DNA from: an uncultured bacterium
GTDB taxonomy: Bacteria; Omnitrophota; Omnitrophia; Omnitrophales; Aquincolibacteriaceae
Length of the DNA: 64,000 bases
Direction: 5' to 3'
Assembly (NCBI GenBank): GCA_964445745.1
Contig: CAYULU010000001.1
Span: 35,873 to 99,872, forward strand
This document shows positions 12,001 to 40,964 of this stretch, in pieces. The position numbers and the translations under genes were made by a program. Below the pieces are notes generated by a model, which saw only the letters and a list, made by a program, of their open reading frames with translations, was not told where the DNA came from and made no database searches. The first letter of the stretch is position 1; each line of letters opens with the position of its first letter.

Positions 12001-15000
12001 AACGGCGCATTCCAAAATATGGCTTTGATAAAGCGAAAGACGCTGCCGAAAAACCGGCCGCGATTGCTGCTGCTTTAACTGCTGCGCAGGCCGAAAGGAC
12101 CCGTCTCGCAGCGGTACTTGCGGCTGCGGAGGCTGCGCAACAGCCGCCGCCGGCGCAACGGTCCGAGGTTCGCTCAATCGAGGAAATTAGGGCCGCGATC
12201 GCTGCCCAAGACAGACGGATCAAAGAGCTCGAGGCTAAGCAACAAGTATTTGCCGGTCTTCCTGCCGCTGAACAGGAGAAGCTGAAAGCCGACGAAAAGG
12301 CTTGGGATAAGCATCAGACTCTTTCACGGTTCCGTCTGGATCTACTTGCCGCGCTCATGTTCTCGATGCGTGTATTCCTCGTGCTTTGGATTGCCGCGGC
12401 TCTGACACCTTACTTGGGTCTTACCTGGGCTTTTGCTTTACCCCTTGCATTCACGCTCGTATTTCTGAAGATCTATGGCTGGTTGTACAAGAATCTTAGC
12501 TATGTGGGGATCTCAGTCTTGAGTGCGACGATCAAAACCCTCGTGTTCACGCTTGTTGTCATTGTTCCGATTACGGGGGTACTCGTATCATTGACCCCGT
12601 GGGTTACTTTGGGGGGATTTTTTGGCGGAGCCTTGGGAATCGCTACGATTCTTTGGACGACGGTTCTTCTTCAGCCGGGGTTATTGGTGATGGGCCTTAT
12701 GTGGGGCGTCATGCTGGTTCTTATGACGAAGTGGGCGGATCCTCAGTCATCGCTGATCGTGGTGGATATGAAGGACGAGGTTCGCGAGCAGTTTAAAAAG
12801 GATTTTGCTGAAGAAGAGGCGCAGAGGGTTCTTAGGGATTTACGTGAGCTGCGTGATTGGCTTCAGGCTGCCGAGAAGAAAGCTGAAAAGGACAAAGTGA
12901 CAGTCGCAACAGCTTTGGGGACGGGGAAGGGGAGTCTGAAGGAAAAGATACAGGCGAGGATCGCGGAACTCAGGAACAGTCTTGTTGTGAAAAACGGGAA
13001 TACTTATATCCGGATGCCGGACGGCAGCCTGTATTTTAAAGAAGGCGAGATGGCCGTTGTGAAAGGTGTTACGCTTCATGCCGGGGGCACTCAGGAAATG
13101 GACGAGGTCGTCTATTCCTTCGCCGAGAGCTTGATCCAGAATAACATTGAACAAGCCAGGTTTGCCTTGGGGATCAACGGTGGAAGCATCACCAAATACA
13201 TGAAATTGAAGGACCGCTATGAAAAGAAAGAAATAACAAAAGAAGATTACGAAAAAGAGCTTAAGACGTACAAGGTCGGGAGTTTGACCATTGAAGAGTA
13301 TGTGCGTGGACTGAGAAAACGTCTTGAGGTTTACGCTCTTGTGATCCCTGACGTGCAAAGAAGGTTGCAGATCTTTTTGGAGCCGGGGTGCAGAAAGCCG
13401 TTTCCGAACGTTCTGAAGTGGGGTGCGTTTACGATGTACGGGGAAGACGGCTCCAAACGGAACGCGGAAAATACAAAAGGCGGGTCCATGGGACAGGTCT
13501 CCTCAAAGGGCATAAATTTTGTGACGACGTTTAACATCTTCGGACGTAGGATCCTGCTCGGTATGACTCCCGCGGTGATCGAGGCCTGGCTTGCGGAGAA
13601 TGGCGGTGCAAAACCCGGTGATCTCAGGATCCCTCTGGCGGCCGCTAACGAGCCTTTCTTTGCGGGAGTTATTAAAATACCGCCTCAGGATATCGATGGC
13701 TGGATTGCTGAGGTCGATGCTTCTTCCAAAAAGCCCCAGACGATAGACGAAATGGTCATTCCTCTCGAAGAGACCCGTAAGGATGAGAATCTGATGGGTC
13801 AGTATTATCCTCAGTTGGATGAACAGGGGAATCTCGTACCGAGAGTTAAACATTCGACAACGGTAGATGGAGGGAATTATGTTAGCAATGGTTCCATTCT
13901 GACGGTATCCCAGGCCCTTGCGGACCGTCCTGATGTCGGAGGGCTGCAAATGGATACCGGCTATCATACTGAGGATGGGACTTCGATGGATTGGGTACAG
14001 CGCCGGTTTGCCCATCATTCCGGGTTCTGGACAATTCGTTTTAATGCGGCCGTGGCGGGTTTTGAGCGGTTCTTCGGGAAGTACACGCTTGTAACTCGAT
14101 GGGCGGGCGAAATGTCGCGTCCGACCGCCGGGATGCCCTGGGGTGCTTATTACACAAGGACCGTTATTCTTTCAGGTTTTATTCTGAATGCCATACGCCG
14201 GGCTCTCAGTGAAGGCGGCGGGTCTTATAAATTTGTGGCTGGTGTTGGGGATCTTGCGATAGTTAAGGATGGCGAACATAAGGGCGAGCTTGCCATTAAA
14301 GAGGCACTGAAACATACTGCTCGAAAGGCAGTTAATGATATCGTGATCGCAAAACTTCCCACGGGCGTTACTCTGGACAATGCCACAGATGCCCAGTTGG
14401 TGGAGGCGCTGAATAAAACCCTAGAGAATCCGGGACTCTATGAAAAGGCGAAACCTCTTTTGGACAATGCCGGAATTTCCAGAGCGGAAGCTATGGCGAA
14501 AAAAGGAAAAGATGCTGTTGCGCAACTTGGCTTGCGAAATCGTGCCATTCTCCAGGCGATATACGGCGAAGAAATACAAAATCAAACGGAATTATCTTCA
14601 ACCCTTGATCAAAAAGGGCTGAACGGCTATGCGGAAGGTTTTCCCGATGCGGTGAACGGGATCATCGCGAAAATGAACGGCGAGGATGAGATCGTCACGA
14701 ATACGCCCTCGGATAACTATGTCATCCACGATTATGTTCGCAGACATTATGACAGGATCAAGGCCTACAAGAGCATGCCGGAGGGACCTGCTAAGGGATG
14801 GTACTGGATGTGGAATCTCGGACGAGGACCAAAACTACCGATTGGGTGGTTGATCGCGAAGTTGTTCCGTGTATCGGAGCTTTCCGAGCGTTATTTGATT
14901 TTATCGCGTCTTTGGATAATCCATCTCCCGTCGTTGCATCAGCCGGCGCCGTTCGGAAAAGATTTTATGGATACGACCGGGATGGAATATTTTGACAAAA

Positions 15001-18000
15001 TGCGGGAAGAAATGAAGACGGAGCCGGTTCTTTTGCAGGGGATGAATGCCGCGCTGGTCGTGAGGGCCGACGAGGTTTCCGGGATCATCGACGATACTCA
15101 GGAAAATTACAAAAAAGAAGAATTCCAGGTTAAGAAATCGAGCGAATCGAATGACGAGCCGACGGAGTGGGCGAGGGAAGCCGGCATTTTTGCACTGACC
15201 AAACCGACGGATTTTTTCAACATTTTCCCGAGAGAGGGTGCCGTTGCGAATAAACAGTGGCTCAAGTCGCTTCTCCTCTCCTGGGCGTTGGTGTTTGTGC
15301 CGGCCCTCTTCATTATTACAGCGACCCATCTTGCGGTGCTGCAGATGCTCGTGGTGTTGAGTGTTCTGGTGCTTGCATTTTTGTGGGGGGCATTTTCGAA
15401 ATCGATAGCTGTGACTATGGTTAATTTCAGGAATGATGTTCAACGGATGAGAAACGGCGAAATTCGAAAAGGTTTTGGTTTGTTGGTATGGCACTATATA
15501 CAGATGCATCTTTGGCTTGTAAAGGATGTCCTGATGTGGTGTTCCGAAAAGGTTTTTTCGACGCTGAAGTACATGGCCCGTGTTTTAAATCTTTGGGACT
15601 TTTTCTGGGGTCAGCCAGGACGCATCGGGGTTTTTGATCGGGATCGCAAGGCGCCTCCCGCGCCCCCGGCATTAGGAGCTTTGGCAACTCCTTCCGCGAC
15701 CCAGTATGCCGTCGAGCCAAACGCACGGCGGGGTATTACGTTCGGAGTTGCGCTTTTGGGGATGCTGACGCTCGCAAAAGCTTTCGCAGTTACCGAGATT
15801 TTGGCCGGACTTGGGTTTGCGGTTATTGGGATTGCTGTCGCATCGTGGATGCTGTGGACTTTTCTTTCAGATCCGGATTCAATCGGGAATGTAGCGGGTA
15901 AAGCCCTCGGTGAAGTTGTAAAAGATAACGAGGCCCTTGGGTGGGTGAAGGGAATTCTTGCGGGCGTAAACACTGCCGATGATGCTGTTGCTGCTTTTAA
16001 AAAGGTTGGTGTGCTGAAACGAGTACATGTGATCTGGACCGTGGGATGGAAATCACGCGGGCGAATAAAAGAGATGGTTAAAGCCGAGGAAGAGTTGGCC
16101 GCGAAAGTAGGGCGCGCGGCATTTTTTCCTCGCGCGGCATTTCCGTTTGTGGATTTCATCCGGCTGTCGAATCATCTTTTTATTCCGTTGTTGTTCCTAG
16201 GTGTCGTGGGACTTCTCATGCCGGTTTTTGCGATTAATGTCCCGATATCCCTTATCATCTTAACGTTGCCTTTGACCATTCCATGGGTTTTTGGTCCGTT
16301 TGGCCAATTTGTCGGTGGTTATATTTTTAATCGTAAGGGAGAGCATAACGGCAAGTGGAGGGCCCAAGCGTGGAGTATTGGGCTTGGGGCCGCTTTCCTT
16401 GGAATGGGCATTGCAGTTCATAAATTGACCCTGATGCAGAATGTTTTCGGGGCGATTTTGGAGCTCATAATACACGCGCCGATCACCGCAGCCATCTCCG
16501 GGATGGTCGAGGGTGGGGTTGGTCCCTTCATGGGCGTCTTATCGGGTTTGTCGCCATATATGATGTGGGTGCAGTCCTTTATCGTGGGCGGCATGGTATT
16601 GCTTGTCATTGTCGGTATGGTGTGGGCTCTTATATATTGGAATCAGGTAAGAAAAGAAAAGAAAGCCGCGGACCAAAAAGCTGCAGCTAAGAAAGCCGCG
16701 GATGATGCTACCGCGGCGGCTGCCGCTGCTGCGAAATCTGCCGCGGGGACGCCAGCTGGGAACGGAACGTCGGGGACGACGAGTGGTACGTCGACAGCGA
16801 CCACGCCTACGCAAGCACCTGCGGACACTTCGGATAAGGCACTGGCGGGAACTGAAAAGCCAGATGTGCATGCAACCGATGTGCCTGGAACCACTGAAGT
16901 GACGCCGCCTTCGGATCAGGCTCAGGTTGAAGTGCCAGCGACCGAGCAAAAACCCGCTGTTGAGCAAACACAACCAACGGAACAAAAAGAATCCGCTGCT
17001 GACACGGCGGCATCTGCAATTCCCGAAAAATCAGGGTCCTTATTGACTGAGGAACAAGAAGCTGCACTTCGGATGGTTGCGGCCAATTATGCCAAAGTGC
17101 CCTACATTGCGAAATACGTGCGAATGGCTCTGCTTTATTTTGGGCGTTCCACGGACTCCAAATTTAAAGAAGTCGAATCGGCGTATGTAGCGGCGAAACC
17201 GAATGGAGAGGGATTTCCAAAGACAGAATTTAGCTCAATTGAGGGAAATGCTTCGTTAAAAAAGCTTGCTAAAACCGCAGTCATCCAGGTTTTGAGTTTG
17301 GATGGTGGTTTGGGCGAAAAATTGCGTCGTTCCCTTTGGAAATCCTGGTTGCTAATGAAAGGGTTCTTGAACAGGGAAGGACTGGAAATCGATTCCGAGG
17401 GCAACCCCAGGCTTGGTGCGAAGGGCACCGATATGGGGTATTTTGTGAAGCTCCCGGATGGCAGGATCGTCTATGTCAGCGTCTCAGAATCCAAATTGAT
17501 TAATCTTTACAGACAAGGACAACAGTCCCGTTTTAGCGGATTGAGCTTTCGTGCTATTGTTAACGCAGCATCCCGACCTTCCTATGAGGCTCTGTTTGAA
17601 AAGCCCAATCTTCTGGGAATTATCGCAGAGGGTAGCACAGTCCCGATGACGTATAGGGAACTGCTTGCATCCGTGAATGTAAAGGTCGATGACTTTCTTT
17701 TTCAAGACAAGGTCCCGGGCCTTCGGGTATGGGTAGATAAGACGGGGAAGGAAGTATTCCTTCCGTCTGTGTCGGATGCTGGCTATAGCCAGGAAGGAGG
17801 CCATGGTCAGATTGGCGTGTTGACGGTTATTAATCCTGAAGATTATGTCCCCCGGACGGATGGAGCGCCTGATTTTGTGGCTTTTACGAATGGGGATGGA
17901 CAGGTCTCTTCCGACATTTCGCCGGAGATTATCGGGGACATGATTCAACGCGGCAGAGCGATCGGTAATCTTGTGACGGCGGCGACTCGCGTGGATCGGA

Positions 18001-19943
18001 AGGGTGGTAAATATATTGTCAGATTGCTTGAATACCTTGGAATTCGGCGATGGGTCCCCGGGCAGCGGGAGTTGGCGGCAGCGAAAGAACTTGGTAAAGA
18101 ATCCGAGTCTAATTTTTACAAGGCTGGGCAACCGGACGGAGCGCCTGTTTTTGGCGACAATTCAGTTGGAAAACAGCCGTTTAACACCAACACTTTTTAT
18201 ATCAATCAGGCCCGATTGATGCCTTTTCTTGCGGATCTCAAGCGCGTGATGGGGGAAGATGCGTATCTGGCAGAAGTTATTTCGCCCAATTTTATGAAGA
18301 AAGATACGAAACCTGGTCAGGATGGATATCAATATTTCCCAATCGACGGAGCAATTGGGAACGTCTACCACAATATTAACGAATTTGTGATGAAGCTGAC
18401 CCTGATCAGAGATGCTGGGAAGCTAACTGAGAAACAAAAGGAAATTCTGGAGGTGTTCGCGAAACATGGGATTCAGGAAGTGATCCACTATTACAATGTG
18501 CCGCGAACCATGTTTACGCCCCAAAAAAATCCCCTGGATGCTCTATTGCAAATGCTTGGGGGATACTATCGCTATGATCTTGAGACGGGCAACCTGGCGG
18601 AAACAGAAAATGATCTGGTGCCGCCTGAGGTTGTGATTGTGGATTCCCAGGGGAAGGCACAGGACAGTGGGGCCGGATATTACAGCGAATTTTTGAACAT
18701 GCTCCAGACCTTTGTCTCGATGGACAGAATCGAATCTATTCAGGCCTCCTCTTTTGATATTCGGGAGCTGGACAAGCTTGAAATCCATGGCAATATCTCA
18801 GTGCGGGACACGAAATTCGTCGGGAATGTGGAGATCATTAACCGGGGCACGAGTGAGAAGGTTTTTGATGTCCGCGATGCGATTTTGAGAAATTCCGGGC
18901 TTCGTGATCAAGTTGGCTACCAGGAAGGGCAGCCGCTTAAGCTGGAAAATGTGCGAATTACGATTGGTGAGTCGGGAGACATGTCAATTGAATCTGTCGG
19001 GGCACGCTCCGAAATTCGCCGTGTCCCCGTCAGTCCTGTCTCGGAAGTGAAATCATATGGGGCCTTTGTAAATAATTTTAGGGCGAAAGTTGATAATGGG
19101 AGTCCTTTGTTACCGGAAGAGAAAAGGGACTTTATTAAAGCCAGCTTGGAAAAAGCCAAAGGGTTGCAACGCATAATTTGGGATGCCCCTGAGGGGATTT
19201 TTGTGAGTTCTGAAGTGACAACAGTGTTTCAACCGGCGAATCGGCTCTACGAGGACATGCCGGATAATGAGTTTCTGAAAGCGGGCGACAGTCTGATTAA
19301 ATGGGATAGCGATATCAGTAAAAAAATATATGAGAGAGCGATGCGTGATGCTCTTAATGCGGTGGTGACCCAGAGACAGGAAGTGCGGCTCACGACGGAA
19401 GTTTCGAATCCTATTGCTTTGAGAGTCGAGGCGGGGGTGGCAGACGCCATTATTGCCGGGCTTAAGGCCGAAGGCATTGTCGTTCCTGTTGCGGAAGTTC
19501 TGGATAAGGGCGCTCTTATTGTGAAATATGACACAGAATTGATCGATCAGATGATCAAGCAGCGCGCAAGCGGCCAGATCGCCGCTGGCGTGAAGATCAT
19601 CGTGACGGCACGGGATATGGACGAGGCCTTCGCGGTCAGCAAACATTATGGCGACGCGGTGACCGCGGTCGTGACGAGTGTCGCGTATAACGTTAACAGT
19701 ATCGTTACTGATGAGATGGAGGCTCTTGGCTTGCGGGAACGCGGCAGAAGCCTGATCCAGGTGCGGCCCGGGACCGAAGCTACTCAAAATACCGCGGCTT
19801 ATCTTGCGGCAGCCCTGCTTTCGAATGGCAGGATCGTGGTGGTTGGAGAAGAAGAGCTGGTGTCTGGTGCGATCCAGATCAGCGTAGCCCAGATGCTCCG
19901 CGCCGAAATGCGCGCCGCTGAAGCTATCGCGAAGTCGGCGTAG
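57..19943 (+). CDS. Giant membrane protein (>=6628 aa). Mostly coiled-coil/helical and of unknown function. TM clusters at about aa 3950-4200 and 5050-5540. An Ala/Thr/Gly/Pro-rich linker, then a C-terminal UDPGP-family (UDP-sugar pyrophosphorylase-like) domain. 5' end possibly truncated by the window edge.
   Basis: Uninterrupted 19.9 kb ORF in the track. The frame has no stop back to nt 3, so the GTG at 57 is only the first start codon inside the window. Hydrophobic helices read directly from the translation. UDPGP motifs: LSLDGGLGEKL, GGHGQIG, FTNGDG, RKGGKYIVRLLEY, FNTNTFYIN. Confidence 0.88.
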   Translation: METIAEGPTDMTTLPTAVPLADAVQQKLAQFHDTLDEMGATVDMPVEDRAAQVREIREGLTRISNEYFGLSGDGAIATSFVDISRRVAQEEWALRPAEPAIPAPKSSQDVGSTIVAVVGDGAVAGVVAVAAEVADAVETAKALGVSPGGETPAVATLTKAAVGGQVIAGAALYDALKKGITDPTVQSALRNELERSPMPTTTEEMLFSEMAQLYSLLAASEEALKTQEYSDQYRKWTAFVNAGLNAVLTRHYEKTRYQGTAEEAYPGDPSIVKLVPYTRTNSTSRYDSWSAFAGAGLRTGSDMVQFNEVLEAEAASALSNYQIAVAQVIQQKLFHMTEIATLNERLNRLDAIKRAYLDKIQSLQETLSKSHASLPALKRQLEASLTSLEIARSNILASRDRHKTRLAFLMGRDPTFAHNDKDYTSYVETLTYDTIRNAALTDERTDDGIRIIVEQAQNYILRRSAELDKVLPGLSWQLTAPEALVSLGDESDWTARVNLFTFDIAWSFKDYMENQWVNAKTEAAKASVMGRMVDIQHDAIKRLYELRSLQAYVQQIKKQSTTELLVVEALLTSVTQKPVRDMDPIAAADQYILLLDQIASAEGELVKLENAEAELTKQLDGIKNGMTKLVEENQEIAKEVGFDPAGAKFRETAEFGYQQLTDNVNTEANSLVASYEDAQDKDAFIHELLAPSSRLAAGQYQAAAMRLDRVHQERLRLFAYLNAGFGASLEDPGAWTFVVNGGVGFDIPLLSFTRRAAKYSADAAQERADSYLLDLETRTHFELKVLLDRLAFMGKQITDQTNRVQTAQKVLAERVVEVRKRLGERGIVVDDETGRILDALSAGQTDELTKLIPVLVGRPMAERLEEKIWEALAGAANELAKEKTALSAMTDNRVKVQLLVKRLVTPDFRSVPSAEALTQANKEFTDADYQAQLKRVTNPYFRFLNENGIFLPSAAKDLRTMEGVLARFLPEMKEAADSAWAKYPKFRESKQAGDAEKERLIAGETKRLEEKREELAGARRQLDLEKPDEKADKKTQRAWQKSLSDLDKKQQKLDEELLELGKVESLIRTYKLFEESQGKLQRLVGDANNQSLEDQRHAMRELLEGLVTGTESYLTSEYLLAKMLDLGAYESRDDWYQGIRQMLGFIGDEGTSVFGYTGRIEAIQAAFVNVEKAWAAMKADLGIYGGVGYQRSRVQPETGEVTTGSVFTVGLGGIFNHLKRVILGARSGSQQTVAQLLAESSGEVIARAKAHAQESNETWGIQSEMGKLAARIELYEKIKEEFLQWRASYEPRPDGVRTNVDRLRSLLGPDRTTDESYSLKTADLEARIQSDTEAIRYLEAQLKRLGFSPSVIRQGTAHAEGFQSETTALAPIGEQLREMSRENYSRQSVTLNSMLDSVLARSTAGPSAYATSASMTQSPFYRDAGVFYQSLDADAGLPGADSNRFAVFSWSGADLFGSQKQTYTLMLRHTKSLEDSAVKENERVIQSKVRSIVSAASRLRVLNRMQKLLADQVSGLQKLEAMIGASRYEHGIKARSFDALETIASHESEDAFAANLSALWAEVKGMSVGEDEKKKIFYDRLADLMKVEENSLAKDLDSLKRQAGELGIALDLVEGLDLTQVGNLENYESDEAVRARIREEINRQFVKTLNQNRLQVSVKLGLSHPSHQSALSEGEPFLGFGASYLIYDSNLQAMINFWENRGSIEQLWARQGDQDDKVRWLELGLDVEKLQKEVELRKQVVESVAVAYQIARERARRDGYPDAPIDAAFRYMNELKAYKGAVDAYWEASQRMIDFAKEKKFEIELPRGTEDSIERIKAMIPKWIEDDTTEDVTAPKYLDETVKPELIGEGTRAADFSVDETLMYKDQQLATAVSDLLKTLGIADLSAEATLSQIKDRKDLETVMVNIFGRVAERYGRRDPAAWVGQVAKSYQSLTKDQFFEKTGFMEVGLGEEIWGNLFSQCFSMGPSAHKLLDQSGIDMNQLAMAAFMGELGQLAASRGEDGDSQKIAQALVNDFPGAIAALERMRGQSPGTYSLRSPVEGAEVLTLVLYRAMGDEALRDLTFDKILENEDHKRAIENLSPEFNLNNIFPGIMGVERNKDGWVDGWKETTKFLSIASGLYDVETQTVKLREIPVGDPEEFAYVMAQNIATILAHPRPGPDANPDQIADYQKMMEQMAYLTARFSHHLANSTNLTIKESDLTSTTYLRLKALEAKMIDEEKTQMIDPVSGTVVTLENVKIRKQAARDAEVEGRRMSNALAYVNDVLFGSGHDAGENRKEWLEKDLAERLRLTEDRVRLEDDFWGRKELQGYLSELTTGADGKKYKGDRPATAMEIYKDKQQVGGSISNMAWEALGETGKTLDRESLAYMETLSAEIAVLETRIVHPATSAADKLAAQDTVKGKKFLLERFNHAKAKKVADYTVLMGEETGRGDKSWTESDRIARVIATRRVMRDLRPKAEGLLGELSNDDPYDVSILRMLAESALPDIQPRYMPGAGGFDREKDWQNWEDLGIERRREILNNRLDYARIINAQLKKEGIELRLKDTKDTPVNLRGKDMGMLIADAMEASGETGNKLGWEAVQHIEKLENEIIELKAKIARDATPDPTVQAQLNEKLENLAVWKAAQKKVAKDYEVRQGWEDSKRIERMVELRKIIKAIRPYVERIYGPLDDSNPRDSGILRTLAELVYGDVQDAHMLGALGFDDAEEWAEWRDMGKDKRQAVLTGRLQIAANLNRSLQDSGIVLDLKDTNVTNLDEKGADMGLLMAIAENPEAWKEFFGLQKGKDGSWSVQLKSPYPSRIKALFEMVEEERGQALDPAKFSIEGFLRATDPTGIRGSMSVRRQQADWLSVASRLVFNAEKELGAGADVKAVKARAVEIGNRKIEIYKVANNEGMALTRNNLEFEDENLESLQKSDEGLTAQIYYRWIKEARGAREKAGETILADLNEKKPFWMHPKELIAMRAKVVGRKEESNNPGLANEPGDATADRAVIDLLIEDGKITAANAEKALDRTKYETMVKMYLQAAYMLYNLEIPENAAPGSNERVSKRLQTGDLSSKINPIMAAYDSDNLKEAERLLQREAQILKLTGLFKAALNGDNTIPIADNPYAAMAVNFPDLISKELEKMGIHLQPKDVTKIFRNMSKENVEGLMSRVMFLQESNAPFMEKDNDSEAVDYIYNWLRDMAFFSAAAYEVYGYFPTYEKLESLLKDARGSMDRLPTGPVNGGLRRWYEKKKLAGILLRDADLAGDRTLKPVIVSPVGQNVPGPERSLAATQPADESFSLREILTARSIRRNVFQELQPFSPFKDQGDGIGDLWYARKFKAIKVQLVKEKPEVTESEILSVQTRFVSEMKRARELFLRSSNESQDVLPENAAAQADAFMGEWADYWIRNVLSDDARKDRLESLAASTARMNADRVRAERESARKGNAAAIRERVLAGETEQDILKKNAAAITDFYNQSSWKGDGKIGARLLRSYADEMISQGYSEEEIVLLRLYIRPRLIAIVWPGLSARDLDVRHLADIDAWSLEILDSVSDLKKLDDIDNKIDVRFSEIQAFKGQIRGLLNADASFVELGKTEEGRLKQKNMVNRLANDASNRKLSPDKITKWFEVAKKMVPVPVLGPAAPGDKGSRQPVGLSRALWYADSLMQLGIAESLKPISWSDQVAKGMTDRFFVSIDEMYGLAPRDPATQEKQELTPRQAALFSKAGYEELHNYDRKWKEMWTPSAKWYEFWRWDELWNPTGVITKDQIERMGLDWAEVSTKLVNENKATFKKDWLFWKNPDALRLTQNVGDEIARDAVQKRAQFLLDRGDILPVDFDMFLRRVRSNYQQTIDQRARGFSDGYLEIDKTQVSSVSPFVIAMIADQQNPQQNQQFGFFKMFFGDADPKDLWRADSLVNSAMASAERRVNMEIVDKSSPSDSEKGWISRLLSPERAAGKSWWRAHVDRLVPSAKKDAQAPLFGASIYAALAGLVFLVVALFSTKRRIPKYGFDKAKDAAEKPAAIAAALTAAQAERTRLAAVLAAAEAAQQPPPAQRSEVRSIEEIRAAIAAQDRRIKELEAKQQVFAGLPAAEQEKLKADEKAWDKHQTLSRFRLDLLAALMFSMRVFLVLWIAAALTPYLGLTWAFALPLAFTLVFLKIYGWLYKNLSYVGISVLSATIKTLVFTLVVIVPITGVLVSLTPWVTLGGFFGGALGIATILWTTVLLQPGLLVMGLMWGVMLVLMTKWADPQSSLIVVDMKDEVREQFKKDFAEEEAQRVLRDLRELRDWLQAAEKKAEKDKVTVATALGTGKGSLKEKIQARIAELRNSLVVKNGNTYIRMPDGSLYFKEGEMAVVKGVTLHAGGTQEMDEVVYSFAESLIQNNIEQARFALGINGGSITKYMKLKDRYEKKEITKEDYEKELKTYKVGSLTIEEYVRGLRKRLEVYALVIPDVQRRLQIFLEPGCRKPFPNVLKWGAFTMYGEDGSKRNAENTKGGSMGQVSSKGINFVTTFNIFGRRILLGMTPAVIEAWLAENGGAKPGDLRIPLAAANEPFFAGVIKIPPQDIDGWIAEVDASSKKPQTIDEMVIPLEETRKDENLMGQYYPQLDEQGNLVPRVKHSTTVDGGNYVSNGSILTVSQALADRPDVGGLQMDTGYHTEDGTSMDWVQRRFAHHSGFWTIRFNAAVAGFERFFGKYTLVTRWAGEMSRPTAGMPWGAYYTRTVILSGFILNAIRRALSEGGGSYKFVAGVGDLAIVKDGEHKGELAIKEALKHTARKAVNDIVIAKLPTGVTLDNATDAQLVEALNKTLENPGLYEKAKPLLDNAGISRAEAMAKKGKDAVAQLGLRNRAILQAIYGEEIQNQTELSSTLDQKGLNGYAEGFPDAVNGIIAKMNGEDEIVTNTPSDNYVIHDYVRRHYDRIKAYKSMPEGPAKGWYWMWNLGRGPKLPIGWLIAKLFRVSELSERYLILSRLWIIHLPSLHQPAPFGKDFMDTTGMEYFDKMREEMKTEPVLLQGMNAALVVRADEVSGIIDDTQENYKKEEFQVKKSSESNDEPTEWAREAGIFALTKPTDFFNIFPREGAVANKQWLKSLLLSWALVFVPALFIITATHLAVLQMLVVLSVLVLAFLWGAFSKSIAVTMVNFRNDVQRMRNGEIRKGFGLLVWHYIQMHLWLVKDVLMWCSEKVFSTLKYMARVLNLWDFFWGQPGRIGVFDRDRKAPPAPPALGALATPSATQYAVEPNARRGITFGVALLGMLTLAKAFAVTEILAGLGFAVIGIAVASWMLWTFLSDPDSIGNVAGKALGEVVKDNEALGWVKGILAGVNTADDAVAAFKKVGVLKRVHVIWTVGWKSRGRIKEMVKAEEELAAKVGRAAFFPRAAFPFVDFIRLSNHLFIPLLFLGVVGLLMPVFAINVPISLIILTLPLTIPWVFGPFGQFVGGYIFNRKGEHNGKWRAQAWSIGLGAAFLGMGIAVHKLTLMQNVFGAILELIIHAPITAAISGMVEGGVGPFMGVLSGLSPYMMWVQSFIVGGMVLLVIVGMVWALIYWNQVRKEKKAADQKAAAKKAADDATAAAAAAAKSAAGTPAGNGTSGTTSGTSTATTPTQAPADTSDKALAGTEKPDVHATDVPGTTEVTPPSDQAQVEVPATEQKPAVEQTQPTEQKESAADTAASAIPEKSGSLLTEEQEAALRMVAANYAKVPYIAKYVRMALLYFGRSTDSKFKEVESAYVAAKPNGEGFPKTEFSSIEGNASLKKLAKTAVIQVLSLDGGLGEKLRRSLWKSWLLMKGFLNREGLEIDSEGNPRLGAKGTDMGYFVKLPDGRIVYVSVSESKLINLYRQGQQSRFSGLSFRAIVNAASRPSYEALFEKPNLLGIIAEGSTVPMTYRELLASVNVKVDDFLFQDKVPGLRVWVDKTGKEVFLPSVSDAGYSQEGGHGQIGVLTVINPEDYVPRTDGAPDFVAFTNGDGQVSSDISPEIIGDMIQRGRAIGNLVTAATRVDRKGGKYIVRLLEYLGIRRWVPGQRELAAAKELGKESESNFYKAGQPDGAPVFGDNSVGKQPFNTNTFYINQARLMPFLADLKRVMGEDAYLAEVISPNFMKKDTKPGQDGYQYFPIDGAIGNVYHNINEFVMKLTLIRDAGKLTEKQKEILEVFAKHGIQEVIHYYNVPRTMFTPQKNPLDALLQMLGGYYRYDLETGNLAETENDLVPPEVVIVDSQGKAQDSGAGYYSEFLNMLQTFVSMDRIESIQASSFDIRELDKLEIHGNISVRDTKFVGNVEIINRGTSEKVFDVRDAILRNSGLRDQVGYQEGQPLKLENVRITIGESGDMSIESVGARSEIRRVPVSPVSEVKSYGAFVNNFRAKVDNGSPLLPEEKRDFIKASLEKAKGLQRIIWDAPEGIFVSSEVTTVFQPANRLYEDMPDNEFLKAGDSLIKWDSDISKKIYERAMRDALNAVVTQRQEVRLTTEVSNPIALRVEAGVADAIIAGLKAEGIVVPVAEVLDKGALIVKYDTELIDQMIKQRASGQIAAGVKIIVTARDMDEAFAVSKHYGDAVTAVVTSVAYNVNSIVTDEMEALGLRERGRSLIQVRPGTEATQNTAAYLAAALLSNGRIVVVGEEELVSGAIQISVAQMLRAEMRAAEAIAKSA

Positions 19944-20492: not shown

Positions 20493-23400
20493 ATGCAAAA
20501 TGACCCGATGTTCGTGCCCGGTTTCTCGTGGAAGCGAAGTAAGTCGATAGTTGCGTTTGTCACGCTTGTCGCTTTTACCGTGACGACCCTTGTCTGGGAC
20601 CCCAGGGCATTCGCGGGGACGGGTGTGCCCGTGGCCGGTGAAGTTTCGGCCTTTGCACAAGGGGTTTTGCAGATTCCGGCTGAATTGGGTCAGGTGACCG
20701 AGACTTTGGTGGGGGATCCAAAGGCCCCTGCCTTCATTCATATCCAGTCCGCGCACGGGAACTATTCTGCGGAAAAGAATATCGAGAAACTTCTCGGATT
20801 TATCGAAAAGAATTCTTCTGTAAAACTGATGCTTCTTGAAGGGGCTTCCGGGAAGCTACATCCTAAAATGTTTCGCATGTTCCCCGCGCATCCGGAATTC
20901 AATCAAAAGGTCACGGACAAACTGGTGCGGGAAGGGTATCTCACCGGGCCGGAATCTTTTTTGATCGGGTCGGATGACAAAACAGAGGGATGGGGGATCG
21001 AGGACCTTGAAGCTTACAAAAAGGATCGTGAGTCGTTTATCCATGTCGTGGAGAAAGAAAAGGTTGCTGAGAAGTTCCTGGGTTCTTTGCGGGCCACGAT
21101 CGACAGACGTTTTTCATCGAAACTTAATAAAGACCTCCTGAACCTCGTCCGTCAGGAAGAAGCGTTTGGGTCGGGAACGGTTTCGTTTGAGGGCTGGCTT
21201 ACTGTCCTTAAAGCCGCGAGCCAAAAACATCTTACCCTTGACCTTTCGGATGCCTTTTATCAGAACCAGTATCCCTTTCTCATCCGCTATTTCCGCTTAC
21301 AGGCTATCGGTTCCAAGATCGACCGTGAAAAAGCGCGGCACGAAGCCGATGCTTTTCTCGTCGATCTTGCCAGTCGCAAGGTTTCTGAGGAAGTCCTCGA
21401 GAACTTCAAAGCCATCCTGCAAACATCCGAAACAGAGCTTTTGAGAACGGTCAGCCGTACCACGGATGGCTATTCCACGTTACGTCGGGCTTTCGACCTC
21501 GCTTTTAGCAGTCTCCCCAAAGATTTTTCCATGACGCAGTGGCCAAACTGGACCCTGTATGCCCAACACATCATCCTGATGCAGGAGATGGAAGGCAAAG
21601 GGCTTCATGAAGAGACCTTGAAGCTGAAGGACAAGATTCAGACAGCTTTAGCCAAGACCGCGGATGAAAAAGCATATCTCTCTCAGGCTCGGGAGCTGTA
21701 TTTATTGCGCCGTCTTTTTAACCTTGAACTAACGCGGCCGGAATATGAGGAGCTGGCGCAAACCGTTAAAACGTCCGACACTCAAGAGATTCAAACGCTC
21801 TATAAAACCGCCATGGATTTCTACTCGACCGCTGTTGAGCGTGAAAACAAGATGTTCCAAAATGCCCTTACGAAAATGGCCGGGACGAAGCAACAGCACG
21901 CTGTGATCGTCACAGGAGGATTCCACGCCGAAGGTCTCAAGAAACTCGTCACATCCAAAGGCTGTTCCTACATTCAGATCACGCCGCGCATTGCAGAAGT
22001 CTCGAAGCGTGACCATGAAGTGTATCTTCGCTCGATTCTCGGTTCCCGCGACGTTGAAACTTCCCAGATGAGCGCATTGCTTGGGATCGTCGATCGCGCG
22101 CAGCGTGTCGCCGTGACTGGCGTTGCTGCGACCAAAGACTGGGCTCGCGATGTCCGCAGTCTTGTTTTAGGTCTGATCAATTCTGAAAATGTCTCTGCCC
22201 GTCAGGCTCTTTCAGTGTCCTTTTCTAATTCTATTTTTGGTTCCCAAACACCTGCCTTGGTGCCTGTCATTGCTCGCGCTGAGGTGAGGGAAAAACAAGC
22301 TGCTACTAAAGTAGTTGCTGTAGACTCGCAGATCAATAGCATTGCCCAGAAATTGACGTTGGCGGCAGCGCTAGCTTTTACATCCGTTTCTGCCCATGCT
22401 GATTCAGTTGGAGTGCTTTCTTCGTTCTCCAGCGAACAGTCTGTTTCAGTATGGTTCTGGGGTAGCGTACTTTCCCTTGGAGCTCTTTTTGCTGGTTACT
22501 TTATCGTTTGGCGTCTCTTTTTTCCGATTAACTGGCACCTTCGGCGGCTTCTTAGTAATGAATATGCTGTTAGGAGCCGTGCGATTGAGAAACTTGTTAG
22601 CATAGGGTCTAAGGCCGTTCCCGCACTGATCAGAATTTTAGAAGATAAAACTAATATATCCAGTTCAAATGTTATAGAAATACTTGAAAGAATTAAAGAT
22701 GCTCGGTCCATTCCAGGATTGATTGTCGGACTGGGTGACAAATCTGAAGAAATACGTTTTCGCTCGGCTAGAGCGCTCGCGGAATTTGCTGATGCGCGAA
22801 TAGTTCCAACGTTGCGAAAAACTGCTGATGGTTGGTTGCAAGATCTTAGAAAACAGCGAGGTGAACTTGAGGAGACGCTTAAACAGACTCCCTCCACGAT
22901 TGAGCAAGAGGAAACTAGACAAGAGGAGCTTGTGGAATTGGGTGGCCGTGGGGACAGAGGAGGTGTTTATACAATAGGATATGAAATTGTCCCAACGGGG
23001 AGAATGGAAACTGTATCGAATTCTGCATATACGGATCTTTCTTGGAGAATTAGCCGTTTGGAAGTTGTGGAGCGAGAGATTGCATCCTTCTTGCTAAGAG
23101 CCGAAGAAGTAAACCATGTTCGCTCCGAAGTCCGCCTGACGCCCGCGCAGGAAAAGCAATTTCAGAAAGCTCTCCGCGATCTTCAGCCCAAGTGGTGGGA
23201 TGGACTGTTGGGTGAAATTGACGGGAATGAACGTAAAAAGCGTGCCTTAAAAACTCTTGGCGAACTCAAGGACTCCCGTTCGTTTAGGGTGCTGAAAGAA
23301 AAAATTTTGTTGCATCAAGAAGAGCCGAATTTTCCTTCTCAGCAGGCGGTCAAGTCCATGAAAGAATTTCCAACAGATATGCTACTTTCGGGGTTGATGC

Positions 23401-26400
23401 CGTTCTTGGGCTCCGAAGATGAGCGGGTCGGGCAAAACATGGTTTCTATATTCGAGGGGCTTGAAGATCCCGCGATAGTTTTGCCGATGATCCAGGCTCT
23501 CGAAGGCCGGGATCCGCGTGCCCGCGAGCGTGCCGCGAGCGTGCTTCTTGGATCACGCGACTTTCGGTCCCTCGACGCATTTTTGAGGGTTCTCAAAAAT
23601 TTAAACGAATCTGCTGAAATGCGTCGCACGGCAATTTCTGCCATCAGAAACTGGAATCCTTCAGATCTGGGCAAGGAGAGGACGACGCAGTGGGTCGAGG
23701 CGCTTATCTCGTGTCTGGATAATCCGCCTACACGAGACGATGCGGCTCGCACTTTGGGTGATTTAAAAGATCGAAGGGCTATCAAGCCGTTGGTTGATCG
23801 GCTTATGACGATCGATCCAAGCATGCTTCCGCCGGTCTTCTTGTTCGCGTTGAGAGACCTTCAGTGGGAACCAAAGAACGTAAACGAAGCAATCCGTTTT
23901 GCTTGCGGTTTGCGGAGTGATGCGACGATTTGGGACAAAGTGGCTTTATTTGGACCCGCGGCCGTTCCTTTGCTCATGGATCTTCTCATTTCCAAAGATT
24001 TTGAGTTGAGGCGAAATGTTGCGACGGTGCTTTTGAAAATTGCCGACCCCAAACTGGCGGGGCTCGACCGCTATCTTGAATGGACTCAGGATGGTACCCC
24101 ACCAGAACAGAGGAAGCTTATCTTCTTGACCCCTGAGAAAATTGAAACAATAAAAAGGGCTTTTGCGGAGGGAAGAACGATCCAGGTCGAATATGAGGAG
24201 CAAGAGATGGTCTCTCATCAGGAATCGTATCTGGACACGTACGGGCAAGATTATTTCTATGTTGTGGTCGATACTCCAGGGTATCTTTCTGTGAAGATTA
24301 CGGGCATGGGACAAGAGATCGGATCTGTTTCTGTTGCTCGGACTGTAGGGCCTGCTGTTACTGCTTCACCCAATGGTTTTCCGGAACCCTACGCGAAGGA
24401 TGTCGGTTTTTGGGAATTCCGGCTCCCTGTTTTTAACGCGGCGAGCGAAGGACTAAGTGTCACCCGGTTACGCGATGCGCTCGAAGTTCTGAAGAATCGT
24501 GGCTGGCTCTGGAGCCATTTTGAGTCCACCCATCGGGAGAGGGTCAACCAGCGCGCTACCGATCGGCTTGAGCAGCTCTTGTCGAAAGTTCACGCGGTCA
24601 TGATCACTTTGTATGCGAACGGGATTTTATCTGCGGCAACTCCGCTTGTTTCGCTTCAGCTTGCGGGAAGTTATCTCTGGACCGACTCGCCGAACGATCT
24701 GGATCTGGTCGTGATCGTCGAGGGCGAGCGGAATTTTGAAAAAATGTCCGCTTCGAATCATACGAATGGCTTCCTTCCCGTGATTCCCGGCATTGAGACT
24801 TCGTACGAAGTGGTCGGGCTCGAGACATTGAGACGGGCCGTGGGGGGGGATGAGGTCAAGGATGCGAATGTGATCCGGCGCAAGGCTATTATGTATTCGG
24901 TTTCTGTCCCTCTTGCCGGGATTGATCTTTTTGCTTCTCAATCGATTCCCTTCGATAGCTATGTCACGATGCGGAACGATCTTATGACGGATGCATCGAG
25001 AGCGGCGTGGAGGGATCTCAAGGGAGATCCGGCCAAGATTGCAGCCAAACGCCTCTGGCGTCAGGAGGAATCGGACGCAATGGAAAAATGGCTGGCAATG
25101 CAGAGGCGGTTGATTTCAGAAGGCAGTACTGAAGAACTTCGGAAAATGCATGAGCGGTTGAGTCAGATCGATTCGCTGATTCTCGCGGCCGAGGCGAATC
25201 TGGAGGAGGAAAAGTCGAAGTTGGCCAGGTTGCGGCAGCAAGATGTTTCTTTCGATGCCGGTGCGTCGCGAAGTGAAGCTAGCCAAAAACAGACTTTGCG
25301 ATCTGAGGTGAGAACCCAGCTGGGGGCAGAAGATTATGCTGCCGCCAATGGAGTGTTTTCGTATTTGGCCGAGCAGTCGCAGGATATTCCCATGAATCCG
25401 GATGTTTTGATTGTGCTCGGGAATCCTGACCATGAGGTGAACGGAACAGCGGCGGCAGCCCTGTATCATCGGCTCAATCCCAAATGGGTGTTAGTGGCTG
25501 GGAAAGGAAAAAAAGATCGGCCGGAGGCCCATGAATTCCGTGATGTTCTTGTCGCGAGGGGTGTGCCTGGAGATAAAATTTTTATCGAAGATCAGTCCAT
25601 GAACACGGGACAAAACGCACAATTTGGATCCAAATTGCTTCGCGAAGCGATGGAAAATCGCGATCCGGACATGCTCAATCGCCCAATCACGGCTGTCGTA
25701 ACACAGAAACCGATGGGACAACGATTATCGACGGATATCATGGAGAAACAATTCGCATGGCCGCAGGGTATCTCATTTTTTCCGTCGGCGCCCCGTGTGC
25801 CTCAGGTTAATGGACAAACTGACAATGAAGAATTTTTCCAGCTTGTTGCCGAAGCCCTTGACCAGATAAGACGTTTTCCAGACTTCGCGCGGCAAAAGTT
25901 CATTGATCCTAAAGCGGCTCAGCATCCTAATGAAGTGACGCAGGCCGTTGGGAGATTGACAGCCCTTATGCAATCCCGTTCCGAAACCCGCCTGACGCTC
26001 CATCAGGCCGATGACTCTGGCGAGCAGGAAAAGCAATTCCAGAAAGCTCTCCGCAATTTTCAGCTTTTTTCCTGGAAAAAGGTTGTGCCGATTGTGTTTT
26101 ACGTTGGGATTCACGTCGGGGGCTTTTTGCTCGTTCTTTCTTTTATTGTTTCATACTTCGACCTGGACCTTAAGTCTTTGCAGGATCGATATTGGTTAGT
26201 CTTGATGGGAAGTCCCTCATTTTTGATGACGGTTATGTTTCTCAGATCGTTGCCGGGTCTCTTGCGGCAGATACCTTCTGTCAATGATCATATCGCCGGG
26301 CGCCAAGCGGAAGAAGAGGCTGGCGCGGAATCTCGCTCCGAATCCCGGTTGTCATTGACGCCGCTGATCGGGCTGCCGGCGGAGCTGGATCTTGAGACAT

Positions 26401-29400
26401 TGGCGGTCCGGTATGGGCCGGGGGTCAGTTTTCTCAAGGCGTGGGAGAAAACGATGTTAAGCGAGACGCCCGCGGGAAATGGGCTTCCGCTCTGGAAGAG
26501 CATGGCTTTTGCGGCGGAATATATGAATGCAGCGGGCGAGGTTATTCAGCAGCCTGATCTTGAGAAATACTACGATCCTTCCAAAGTCCTATATCACGGT
26601 CACCAGGGAGCCTACTGGAGCGATCCGGAGCTTCAAAAATTGCTTGCGGCGCAGCATCTGAGGCCTGACGTGACGGTGCTTCCTGCGGGAGTGATTGGCC
26701 GTGAATTTCTGCGAACCGAAGGTCACCATCATCTTTCGGGTTTGCCGGAGGTTTATGAAACGGCGTATGGGACGAATGGGTATCTTCTTTTCAAGACCGT
26801 GAGTGAGGACTCGGAGGATATCGCGGACGTCATGTATGTTATGGCCGAGGCGGGGGATCATGTCCTGTTCCCTCCCGGGTATCAGCATATCAGCATTAAC
26901 ACGGGTTCGAGGCCGTTTGTGATGACCGATTGGGTGAGCATGAAAGCGAACTCTGATTTCAAGTACATCAAGCGCCATCATGGGGCCCCTTACCTGGTAG
27001 TCCGGGGGCCGGACGGTCAAGCTCAATTTGAGCGGAACGCACAATATCCTGGTAAAGTTCCGCCGATTCGTTTGGTGCGTCCAGCGGACGAGATTAAACT
27101 GGGTGATCAGGTGATCTTCAAAAAAGGTGTACCCATGTTCGATCTTGTCAAAAACGGACAGATTGATCTTTTAGCCTTCCTGAATGACACCAATGAGTCA
27201 GGGCGTTACGACGAACTTTACAAAAATGCGTTCCGCTCCGAATCTCGTTTATCCGTTTCTTCGGGAATCTCCTCGGACACAGATTCAGTAACGGGCGTGA
27301 CGCCGGCTCAGGAAAAGCAATTTCAGAAAGCTACCCGCAATTTTCAGTTCTTTTCCTGGAAAAGGGTCTTGCCGATTGTGTTGTACGTTGGGATTCACGT
27401 CGGGGGCTTTTTGCTCGTTCTTTCCTTGATTGTTTCAAACTTCGACCTGGACCTTAAGTCTTTGCAGGATCGATATTGGTTGGTCTTGATGGGAAGTCCC
27501 TCATTTTTGATGACGGTGATGTTTCTCAGATCGTTGCCGGATCTTTTGCGGCAGATGCCTTCAAACAATGATCATATCACCGGGCGCCAAGCGGAAGGAG
27601 AGGCTGGCGCGAAATCTCGCTCTGAGGTCCGGTGGACCGATTCTGAGGAAAGGCAATTCAAGGAGGTTCTTACCGGACATCAGGAAGGTTTGCCGCGCGG
27701 CAAGTTTGTTATGGAACTATTGCTAGCGGGGATGATAGGGATGATCTCGCTTGTAAGCCGAGCGGCTGAGGCTCCACGGACTAGAGGCGGTTTCACAAGT
27801 ATTTCCAACCCATTGTTTCTCAAGGGGTTGGAAAATGTAAAAGGGACTTATGAAAACGCTTCTATTGAGAACTCGACGGAAATCCGGGCGAAGGGGAGTG
27901 TGGCAACTCAATCTTTTTCCTCTCAACGGGTGGATCAGGAAACCCTGCATGCACATGTTGCTGACATCCCCAGCCTTTTGGAATCCTTGTATCATGAGGA
28001 TTCGTGGGTACGGGAACAGGCCCTGACGGCGCTCCGTACAATCAAGACGGAATCGGTTGTCACCGGACTCCTGAAGTCTTTGGACGACAAAACCGGTTTG
28101 AATGTTGCGGCCCGTGCGCGGGTGATTCAAACACTGAGTGAAATGGATGTTCTCGAAGCGGTCCCGGTTTTTATTCGAATTGCAAACGATCCGACGGAAC
28201 TTCGCTCCATTCAGGATATTGCTCTTCTTGCCATTTATTCGGTCAGGAATCCGGTAGCGGCCCCCGATCTGGTCAAAGCGCTTTCTTCGGATGATGCGGT
28301 TCTCAGGTTCTTTATCCTGAAAGCTCTCTCTGAGATGCCCGCTGTTTCAGTGACGGAAGCTTTGAAAGAGGGGCTTCATAACCCGGACCCCCGAATTGCA
28401 GAGAGTTCTTTTGTAGCGTTGGTCCAGCGCGGGAAAATTTATGAAGTGAATGATCCGGCGCTCGTGCCTTTTCTTAAAAAGATGATGGCTCACGGAGAGT
28501 TTTCTTACAGACATTTCGCCGCGGACGCATTGTACCGGATCAGCAAAATCCAATACTATCAAGCTGCTTATGGTCCGCTTCTTAAGGAAATAATCAAAAT
28601 GTGGGCAGGAATATTTGCTTTTATCCTGACGCCTTTTGGAGTGGCACGTGTGCTTAAGAAAATCCAGCTCCACCACTATCGCGAACGGGATTTTTATGCC
28701 AGCCATACCGATTCTGGCATTGATTTTGCCGGTACTGTAGATAAGAGCGCGAAGTACCCTCGCTCCGAATCTCGGAATATTGAGGAAACGCGCCCTGGTT
28801 TTTTTACGTCAGAAATTCGGTCTGAAATGCGATGGGATGAGGCTGTGGTGACGCCCCGGGTCTTGGTGGAATCCGGGAGTGGCAGTTTAGCCGCGAAGAT
28901 TGGGACGGCGGCCCGGGTAGCGGCGAACACGGTTTCGCCTCTGCTTTCGAGTTCGCCTGTCTATGCTTCAGAAATCGCCCCGCAACTTTTTGCGGGGACT
29001 GAACACTACCAGTCTGTTCCGGAAATTCCGGGTTCTTTCACGGCACAATGGCCGGTACTGGGAAAGATCGTAAGCGGGTCTGCGACTGCGTCTGCGGAGC
29101 GCCTGGTCATTGATCAGCGGCACGGGATTCCCGATAAGGAGAGCGTTCTTCCCCTGGTTGCGTTTGCCCGCTATAACCCGAAGACCACAGTGGTGCTGGC
29201 GCTGATCGCGACTGAAGATCAGGTCTCGGATTTTCAAAAAGCAGTGGCGGCTCTCCACGGAGGGAAGGCATGGCCGCAAAATTTAAAAGTTCGGGCCTTT
29301 GCGGATGAGAATGCGTTTATTCCGGAGTTTAATGGGTTTTATAACGCTTCTGCGCCGTTGGGCCGCCCTGTAGCACTTGTGACGGATCAGGAGGGTTCAC

Positions 29401-40367: not shown

Positions 40368-40462
40368 TCGAAAATCGAGATTCCGGACGAAGAAAATCAT
40401 TCCACTCGCCGTTGAGGTACGTATTCCTCGTTAGCCTTTCATCCCCAATTGCAATCTGCTGA

Positions 40463-40491
40463 AGTTGACAAAAATTCCCCTTGTGGTAAAG
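40463..40491 (+). promoter_or_regulatory. Candidate promoter (-35 TTGACA, 16-bp spacer, extended -10 TGgTAAAGT) driving a ~270-nt transcript that ends at the 40728..40767 terminator.
   Basis: Perfect -35 hexamer. Weak -10 compensated by the TG. See finding on the small transcription unit. Confidence 0.35.
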
Positions 40492-40727
40492 TTTGCCCGT
40501 GAGTGCAAAAAGAGGCTAAACTATGAAACTTTGTAACCTCAATAGTGAGAGCAGGTTAGAGCTTTATCCCATGACGTGTGTTATGGCGAAAGCGTGGATT
40601 CTGCCCGTTTTTTGGGGGCAGGTAGCCACGAAAATTTTTCGCCATCGATGCCAAAGTGTGGCAGTTCATGGGACTTGGGGGGTCAAAAGATTATCCTGAA
40701 ATAAGAAGATAAAAAGAAATCATTCCA

Positions 40728-40767
40728 AAGCCCATGATCGCTTCAACGGTCATGGGCTTTTTTTTTG
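40728..40767 (+). terminator. Rho-independent terminator (13-bp stem AAGCCCATGATCG / CGGTCATGGGCTT, 6-nt loop, 10-T run).
   Basis: Seen directly: aagcccatgatcg cttcaa cggtcatgggctt tttttttt. Confidence 0.75.
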
Positions 40768-40964
40768 TTCCAGTTTAACCTGTTTTCATGGAAGGTTAAG
40801 TCCCGATTATGCAGTCAGAAGCTGGGGCATGCGGCACGTACTTCATATTGCCATGCCCTTTTTAGAGAAGGAAGGAATGTTCTTTCCGGTGAAACCCGTA
40901 AAGGCCTCGAGCGGTTTTATCGGACATCAAAATCGAGGCGACATAATGGAAGGGAAGGATACAT

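Follow-up and report, generated by a model that had tools for sequence, protein, structure and literature searches.

Two giant proteins share an N-terminal head

We analysed a window of 64,000 nucleotides from an uncultured bacterium of the Omnitrophota (assembly GCA_964445745.1, contig CAYULU010000001.1, positions 35,873 to 99,872 of the forward strand). The window is a housekeeping stretch of chromosome with every gene on the plus strand, and it holds three very long open reading frames (ORFs), here named G1, G2 and G3. Our subject is the N-terminal domain common to G2 and G3, which we call the head. The frame of G1 is open from base 3, so the window cuts off its 5' end; in a relative, the ORF at the syntenic place encodes 8,710 amino acids (aa). 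For G3, the likely start lies downstream of the listed one because its homologue P0012 begins MSDKT. The three ORFs and the two heads are as follows.

3-19943, plus strand: G1, open frame, 6,646 aa visible
20493-29633, plus strand: G2, 3,046 aa
43671-54395, plus strand: G3, listed from a TTG at 43671, likely start ATG at 43734
20547-22031, plus strand: head domain of G2, aa 19-513 (BLASTP against G3, AlphaFold2 model, profile search)
43776-45344, plus strand: head domain of G3, paralogous to that of G2 (BLASTP, AlphaFold2)

Whole-protein BLASTP of G2 against G3 returned one high-scoring segment pair (HSP) only, joining G2 aa 19-513 to G3 aa 16-538 (counted from 43731) at 22.5% identity over 551 colinear columns (E 2.5e-24), and found no other similarity between the two proteins outside the head. 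With the N-terminal pieces alone, two colinear HSPs were obtained (E 4e-19 and 2e-10). The visible 6,646 aa of G1 showed no head and no BLASTP similarity to G2 or G3. AlphaFold2 placed the secondary-structure elements of both heads in identical order (predicted local distance difference test, pLDDT, of 83.3 for G2 and 72.2 for G3). An identity of 22% indicates an old paralogy, and therefore neither a recent duplication nor an assembly artefact. Judged by alignment, the shared region is a real and ancient paralogous domain.

The original prediction, made from the letters alone, held that the two proteins align colinearly over 20640-22010 and 43900-45330. The peptides it quoted are present in the translations of 20493-29633 and 43671-54395, the alignment is significant well beyond the short motifs, and these ranges bracket the head well. 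The homologous stretch begins slightly before them, since the signal segment and a conserved IPxELG element also belong to it.

Invariant residues at the ends of strands

The conserved motifs of the two heads lie at the following positions.

20736-20756, plus strand: G2 IHIQSAH, first invariant His (H88), just past strand 1
20832-20846, plus strand: G2 LLEGA, invariant Glu (E116) at the end of strand 2, 28 residues after H88
21819-21845, plus strand: G2 FYSTAVERE, F-Y...R (R450) in the long helix before the last strands, RDxxM-like
21915-21935, plus strand: G2 GGFHAEG, second invariant His (H478), 28 residues after R450
21981-21992, plus strand: G2 TPRI
44001-44021, plus strand: G3 ILIQDAH, first invariant His
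44097-44111, plus strand: G3 LVEGA, invariant Glu, 28 residues after the His
45144-45170, plus strand: G3 FYRAALERD, invariant Arg motif
45234-45254, plus strand: G3 GGFHTSG, second invariant His, 26 residues after the Arg
45300-45311, plus strand: G3 TPRI

In an alignment of 130 heads with identities down to about 20%, H77, E105, R463 and G488-G489-H491 were invariant and F490 was 99% conserved. Invariant or nearly so were the His of IQxAH, the Glu-Gly 28 residues further on, GxE..Y, F-Y...R, GGFH and the Pro of TPRI. The invariant Arg sits in a motif FYxxAxxR[D/E]xx[M/F], and the spacings are H-28-E and R-26/28-H. The flanks of IQxAH differ from the canonical GTxH, GExH or ExH, having Gln at -3 and no Gly or Glu.

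In the AlphaFold2 models the order of elements is strand, helix, strand, three helices, strand, an all-helical insert of about 300 residues, long helix, strand, helix, strand. The alpha/beta core of G2 is thus composed of aa ~75-172 and ~428-500, divided by the insert. The first His and the Glu directly follow strands 1 and 2, and GGFH directly follows the penultimate strand. We read this as an active-site placement because these residues follow the strands as they do in alpha/beta hydrolase-type folds; such strict conservation of polar residues at modelled strand ends is what an active site, and not a scaffold, typically shows.

Size and distribution of the head family

A profile (A1) built from an alignment of ten heads was searched against 1.84 billion cluster representatives. 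At E<=1e-3 it matched 9,390 of them, of which 6,182 remained at E<=1e-30. Among the best 150 of the 9,390, the domain lay almost always at residues ~1-600 of proteins of 1,000-7,722 aa. The search for the same head on other giant ORFs, suggested along with the original prediction, thus found it in great number and nearly always at the N-terminus of ORFs several thousand residues long. In genomes of species in GTDB, 528 head loci were confirmed by tblastn, and single metagenome-assembled genomes (MAGs) carry several head loci each, of differing subtypes. In 60 of the 69 loci analysed, the ORF was still open behind the head where the fetched DNA ended. All organism-named records among the 79 loci kept are Omnitrophota, with some others titled only 'uncultured bacterium', and the named homologues are all Candidatus Omnitrophota or Omnitrophica.

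Pfam and NCBIfam scans of the head gave no match above threshold, and the precomputed Pfam column was empty for full-length head homologues. Because it is without a Pfam or NCBIfam model, we regard the head as a large uncatalogued family defining a class of Omnitrophota giants. On the evidence of these searches, a very large class of modular giants, restricted to Omnitrophota, invariably starts with this unit.

In one relative (GCA_040767405.1, JAXGOQ010000001.1; locus L001, 11920-12030; also locus L011) the head is a separate ORF of 649 aa (P0001). This ORF stops at a TAG two codons past RAELR (RAELRQD, then the stop, then SATKESKLTPTQEKQFQEA), and the 3,707-aa giant downstream stays in the same frame across this single TAG. 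Either the gene is truly split at this in-frame TAG or the TAG is read through. An identical head protein was present on the 7 contigs read, and the gene layout was alike at all 4 places shown.

R[SA]ExR motifs bound the payload modules

The giants carry repeated copies of a short motif, R-[S/A]-E-x-R: ten in G2, seven in G3, three in G1 and none in the ordinary ORFs of the window. Their positions and the payloads that they divide are given below.

22275-22289, 23121-23135, 25299-25313, 25977-25991 and 26334-26348, plus strand: G2 motifs 1 to 5
27234-27248, 27618-27632, 28761-28775, 28818-28832 and 29601-29615, plus strand: G2 motifs 6 to 10
45978-45992, 47091-47105, 48291-48305 and 49419-49433, plus strand: G3 motifs 1 to 4
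50184-50198, 51981-51995 and 53538-53552, plus strand: G3 motifs 5 to 7
12159-12173, 19005-19019 and 19899-19913, plus strand: G1 motifs 1 to 3
22290-29633, plus strand: G2 payload, with HEAT/Arm repeats, DUF218 and a cupin-type glucose-6-phosphate isomerase (GPI); other modules without a Pfam match
45993-54395, plus strand: G3 payload, with PG_binding_1 and a family 2 glycosyltransferase (GT2) with C-terminal transmembrane (TM) helices; others without a Pfam match

The first junction of G2, RAEVR at aa 595-599, closes the head unit, and that of G3 is RSETR (45978-45992). Across 146 head-bearing giants the motif was observed 866 times against about 27 expected from composition, a 32-fold excess, and its first copy usually fell at aa 550-800, just behind the head. 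Position 2 is S in 77% and A in 23% of copies and position 4 is hydrophobic or small; small residues precede the motif and acidic ones follow. Since codon usage varies between copies, the signal lies at the peptide level, and a nucleotide-level repeat was ruled out on the same grounds. Some ORFs end 2-9 residues past a motif, namely G2 (RSEAR-MAASA), G1 (RAEMR plus 9 residues) and the separate head P0001 (RAELR-QD).

The borders of homology follow the motif. When the payloads of G2 and G3 were compared with other giants, 13 of 14 BLAST matches stayed within one inter-motif module, and 71-86% of payload matches started no more than 25 residues from a motif, compared with 11-17% at random positions. 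The relative's syntenic giant carries cytidylate kinase, CofD, nucleotidyltransferase and guanylate kinase instead. The idea that G2 and G3 are members of one family with swapped payloads is borne out, in that the head alone is common to both whilst their payload modules match single modules elsewhere. These comparisons support modules that are bounded by R[SA]ExR and exchanged between giants, and make the motif a candidate processing or junction signal.

Two features of the payload deserve separate mention. G2 contains recently duplicated TM modules of about 108 aa at ~26022-26351 and ~27306-27635 (aa 1844-1952 and 2272-2380), with 87% aa and ~90% nucleotide identity; each ends in RSExR, and the pair flanks the cupin-type GPI module. 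A 'TPAQEKQFQKA'-like element recurs just past several junctions.

The N-terminal segment predicts export of the head

Hydropathy scans found a hydrophobic segment at the N-terminus of both heads.

20544-20600, plus strand: G2 hydrophobic segment, aa 18-36, signal peptide or anchor, preceded by KRSK
43734-43823, plus strand: G3 likely start (MSDKT...) and hydrophobic segment, from translation and hydropathy scan

We examined 126 heads that begin with Met and contain the His motif. A strongly hydrophobic segment was present at the N-terminus of 91, and in 90 of these 91 the N-terminal flank was net positive. Such a flank predicts export of the head.

Signal-peptide-like segments, by which we mean positive residues, a hydrophobic stretch and an AxA-like end, were also seen within the giants. 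In G2 one lies at ~22320-22390 (aa ~610-632), directly after the junction. In G3 one lies at ~47106-47210, directly after the junction (aa ~1121), and is followed by PG_binding_1. This arrangement in G3 makes topological sense only if the units part before export; it fits a separation of units on the cytoplasmic side and argues against cleavage by a head that has already been exported. A signal or TM segment after every junction was ruled out as a general rule, such segments following 6% of junctions in relatives compared with 4% of random positions.

Probable relation of the head to the TIKI superfamily

The original prediction likened the conserved residues to the pattern of the TraB/GumN/ChaN superfamily. 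The hallmarks of the TIKI superfamily, as it is also called, are a core built on a parallel sheet, a paired His and Glu, a further His and a basic residue that is conserved (PMC6254334). In Bcr135 the pair is H85/E113, and in RRSP it is H3902/E3930, with H4030 as the second His and R4001 as the basic residue (PMC6254334). Its activities include those of site-specific endopeptidases (Tiki, RRSP) and esterases (PMC6254334). All four residue features, the first His, its partner Glu, a basic Arg and a second His in GxxH, are present in the heads. The spacing from His to Glu is 26 in YbaP, compared with 28 in G2 and G3.

Profile searches gave matches to families of this superfamily, and also to DUF5694, each below its curated threshold. 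Cofac_haem_bdg (ChaN, 'Tiki superfamily') matched native G2 at E 3.5e-4 and 8.5e-4 (21 bits), the FYSTAVERE-GGFH region aligning to profile positions ~138-204 of 213, with GGFH at ~204; these sub-threshold matches cover the C-terminal third of the model only. TIGR00261 (traB) matched G3 at E 0.081 over the GGFHTSG region, scoring 11.9 bits against a cut-off of 178. Among nine diverse native heads, four matched (Erythro_esteras 1.4e-3, DUF5694 0.021, Cofac_haem_bdg 0.027 and 0.031). With the insert excised, six of ten cores matched the same families, the best being Cofac_haem_bdg at E 1.5e-4, and the G3 core reached 0.0083. Other sub-threshold figures were 4.6e-3 for Cofac_haem_bdg and 7e-3 for DUF5694. 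All these matches fall in the C-terminal half of the head, on or around R...GGFH.

Comparisons of alignments and structures pointed the same way and were likewise weak. Alignment of the excised cores by hhalign with a broader TraB/GumN alignment (E. coli YbaP and six diverse plasmid-borne family members) gave P 9e-4 and a probability of 22%, pairing R with the R of the TraB/GumN RN motif and GGFH with GAxH; over the C-terminal half the pairing makes sense. With a shallow alignment of enterobacterial YbaP, hhalign gave no signal, whether the insert was kept or excised. In Foldseek searches with the G2 model, the top TM-scores and longest alignments were to erythromycin-esterase-family chains (EreC 6xcs_A, 3b55 and 2rad_B). 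Chains of this family were in the top 50 for both models, 3b55 being in that for G3 as well.

Several results weigh against membership. No profile matched the heads at a curated threshold, the best score being 22.3 bits (E 1.5e-4) against a gathering value of 27.7, and the Pfam models never aligned the N-terminal motif of the heads. The sub-threshold matches are not independent because the queries are mutually homologous. The hhalign probability is only 22%, and its N-terminal half is paired with an unexpected TraB motif and is doubtful. IQxAH replaces the canonical GTxH or GExH. A search of PDB sequences with profile A1 found no match, single-sequence searches of PDB with the G2 and G3 heads found nothing relevant, and Foldseek against PDB gave no E-value below 0.1 for either model, the lack of a significant match being attributed to the dominance of the helical insert.

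We nevertheless read the head as a divergent family of the superfamily because its residue set, their spacing and their placement at strand ends match the superfamily's catalytic arrangement. Membership of the TIKI/TraB/ChaN/erythromycin-esterase superfamily, as a divergent and uncatalogued family, is probable, and we infer an active TIKI-type hydrolase with a His/Glu pair. The likeness first noted thus holds for the invariant H, E, R and GGFH and for their spacings, but the heads reach no gathering score and have IQxAH and GGFH in place of GTxH and GxGH. As to a TraB-like match, TIGR00261 and hhalign gave sub-threshold signals, whilst PF01963 was absent from the matches listed at E<=1 for the 11 native heads scanned and for their insert-excised cores. 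Membership of TraB/GumN proper (PF01963) is not supported by these profile searches.

Possible role of the head

Taking these results together, we consider it fairly likely that the head is an ancient first unit of Omnitrophota giants and a divergent TIKI-type hydrolase, possibly one acting as a leader peptidase. Each head begins with a signal peptide or anchor, followed by an alpha/beta core that bears four invariant residues and is divided by a helical insert of about 300 residues. The head would hydrolyse its substrate by means of the TIKI-type His-Glu pair, the second His and the basic residue. As a leader peptidase it would act in cis, maturing the giant at the R[SA]ExR junctions.

The last step is the most tentative. 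It is suggested because each giant carries its own head in cis, with the first R[SA]ExR directly behind it, and by analogy the head may serve its junctions as viral leader proteases or the MARTX autoprocessing domain serve theirs. BLAST HSPs that respect module borders, and the presence of sequence-specific endopeptidases within the TIKI fold, speak for a processing role. Indirect support comes from the 32-fold excess of the motif, from ORFs that end 2-9 residues past it and from the signal-like segments behind some junctions. On the other side, the head is predicted to be exported whereas the payload modules are cytoplasm-type enzymes, 51 of 126 giants have no TM segment after the head, and G1, which is headless in its visible part, has three motifs too. 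We hold the processing role to be doubtful because the predicted export of the head and the signal segment behind the G3 junction argue against it. The full proposal, a TIKI-type head that works in cis as a leader peptidase and cuts at R[SA]ExR, we rate as unlikely.

The main alternative is that the head is an exported TIKI-like or novel enzyme or binding domain with an external substrate and no part in the processing of giants. Its substrates might be the envelope of prey or host, peptides, esters, or haem as in ChaN, and its place at the front of the ORF would then reflect only the need for a signal peptide. The signal-like N-terminus with its positive flank, found in 90 of the 91 scored heads, speaks for this alternative. 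Many proteins of the TIKI superfamily (Tiki, PrgY, ChaN) are extracytoplasmic, which also agrees with it. The best Pfam matches are to the ChaN family, and in some lineages the head is a stand-alone ORF of 649 aa. Published accounts of Omnitrophota giants propose roles in adhesion or in degradation of prey surface polymers. However, a purely external function gives no account of why thousands of giants, several per genome, each carry their own copy in cis, or why the first R[SA]ExR follows the head so regularly, and the stand-alone ORF is parted from its payload by just one in-frame TAG. This alternative is a possible explanation, to be held as tentatively as the processing role itself.

Alternatively, the head may lie outside the TIKI superfamily, as a new alpha/beta and helical fold with a convergent set of H, E, R and H; it might then, for example, target the giant to the membrane, lead its secretion or provide a scaffold for its assembly. 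The absence of significant sequence or fold matches to solved structures (PDB searches, Foldseek) agrees with this, as do family matches that are all sub-threshold and limited to the C-terminal motif and the low hhalign probability. Yet the weak signals converge: ChaN, erythromycin esterase and TraB are among the profiles, DUF5694 being hit as well, and the structural search brought up erythromycin-esterase chains. The four residues are spaced as in Bcr135 and RRSP, and the strictly invariant polar residues at strand ends look like an active site. A non-TIKI fold therefore seems rather improbable. Finally, chance, low-complexity similarity or assembly duplication as the source of the likeness between G2 and G3 is practically inconceivable: nothing was found in its favour, the identity is low, whole-protein BLASTP rules out both chance and recent duplication, and the two heads fall in distinct conserved subfamilies with orthologues in other MAGs.

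Genomic context

The giants lie among genes for NAD synthase, MGMT, ArgRS, MiaA, HflX, a transaldolase-phosphoglucose isomerase fusion and an amidase, together with transporters, a class II aminoacyl-tRNA synthetase, a MacB/FtsX-ABC system, an aminotransferase and an McsA/McsB-like pair. The fusion is a single ORF of 958 aa (36586-39462) in which a transaldolase domain is joined to a phosphoglucose isomerase domain; the window's second GPI domain, of the cupin type, sits within G2. Upstream of a transporter of the SNF family, about 1.4 kb (40400-41850) has no long ORF and a lower G+C content. Rfam and tRNA scans found nothing anywhere in the window. Downstream of the giants, at 61134-62718, lies the pair of McsA-like (UVR motif) and McsB-like (ATP:guanido phosphotransferase, protein arginine kinase) genes, which is curious given the two invariant arginines of R[SA]ExR.

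Significance and comparison with known systems

Published accounts of Omnitrophota giants describe these proteins as poorly annotated, with their cleavage unsettled and no cleavage points known. A sequence profile of a common, uncatalogued N-terminal domain now defines a huge class of them, and for the head itself an identity as a His/Glu hydrolase is plausible, within a TIKI superfamily that counts site-specific endopeptidases among its members. The head forms a new family of very large size that seems to have diverged from within a known superfamily of hydrolases and to have taken on a new architectural role. R[SA]ExR gives exact candidate boundaries for modules and so opens the way to module-wise structure prediction and annotation, and together with the head it makes it directly testable whether the giants are polyproteins. 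If the head were indeed a leader peptidase, Omnitrophota would express sets of enzyme-like and membrane modules from autoprocessed chromosomal polyprotein genes. This would be a bacterial strategy of gene expression with a defined protease and site, as in viral polyproteins and MARTX.

Giants of this phylum have been published as Archaeovorin and Dockerin types (bioRxiv 10.1101/2023.11.21.568195) and as 'multi-enzyme metabolic clusters' (bioRxiv 10.64898/2026.06.07.730766). In these accounts cleavage is left as an open question, and C39 or S8 peptidase domains are proposed as possible processing enzymes. G2 and G3 resemble the published giants in phylum, in their very long ORFs, and in having enzyme-like Pfam domains, HEAT repeats, signal peptides and TM helices. 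They differ in size, their 3.0-3.6 thousand residues lying below the published cut-offs of at least 10 thousand. Term searches and the portions of this literature consulted turned up neither a TraB/TIKI-type or common N-terminal domain nor an R[SA]ExR motif at junctions, and no defined points of cleavage; literature searches on Omnitrophota giants, polyproteins and TIKI likewise brought up no such head or motif.

The comparison with the TIKI superfamily is closer. It takes in Cofac_haem_bdg (PF04187), Erythro_esteras (PF05139) and TraB_PrgY_gumN (PF01963), with ChaN (2G5G), Bcr135 (3B55), EreC (6XCS) and RRSP as individual proteins. Like these, the head as modelled has an alpha/beta core with active-site-type residues at strand ends: a His, a Glu about 28 residues on, an Arg in a helix with the motif R[D/E]xx[M/F], and a G-x-x-H about 26-28 residues past the Arg. 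A variable helical region lies between the halves of the core in both, and superfamily proteins are often extracytoplasmic or membrane-anchored. Some are sequence-specific endopeptidases. Unlike them, the head matches no curated model, has IQxAH rather than GTxH or GExH and a very large insert (~300 aa), and is always the N-terminal unit of modular ORFs of several thousand residues, whose named sources are all Omnitrophota.

A more distant comparison is with the cysteine protease domain of MARTX toxins and with viral leader proteases. No homology joins them to the head, which is predicted to be exported whilst many modules of the giants look cytoplasmic. The likeness would be one of arrangement, with a protease-like domain carried in cis with unrelated modules and short junctions between them.

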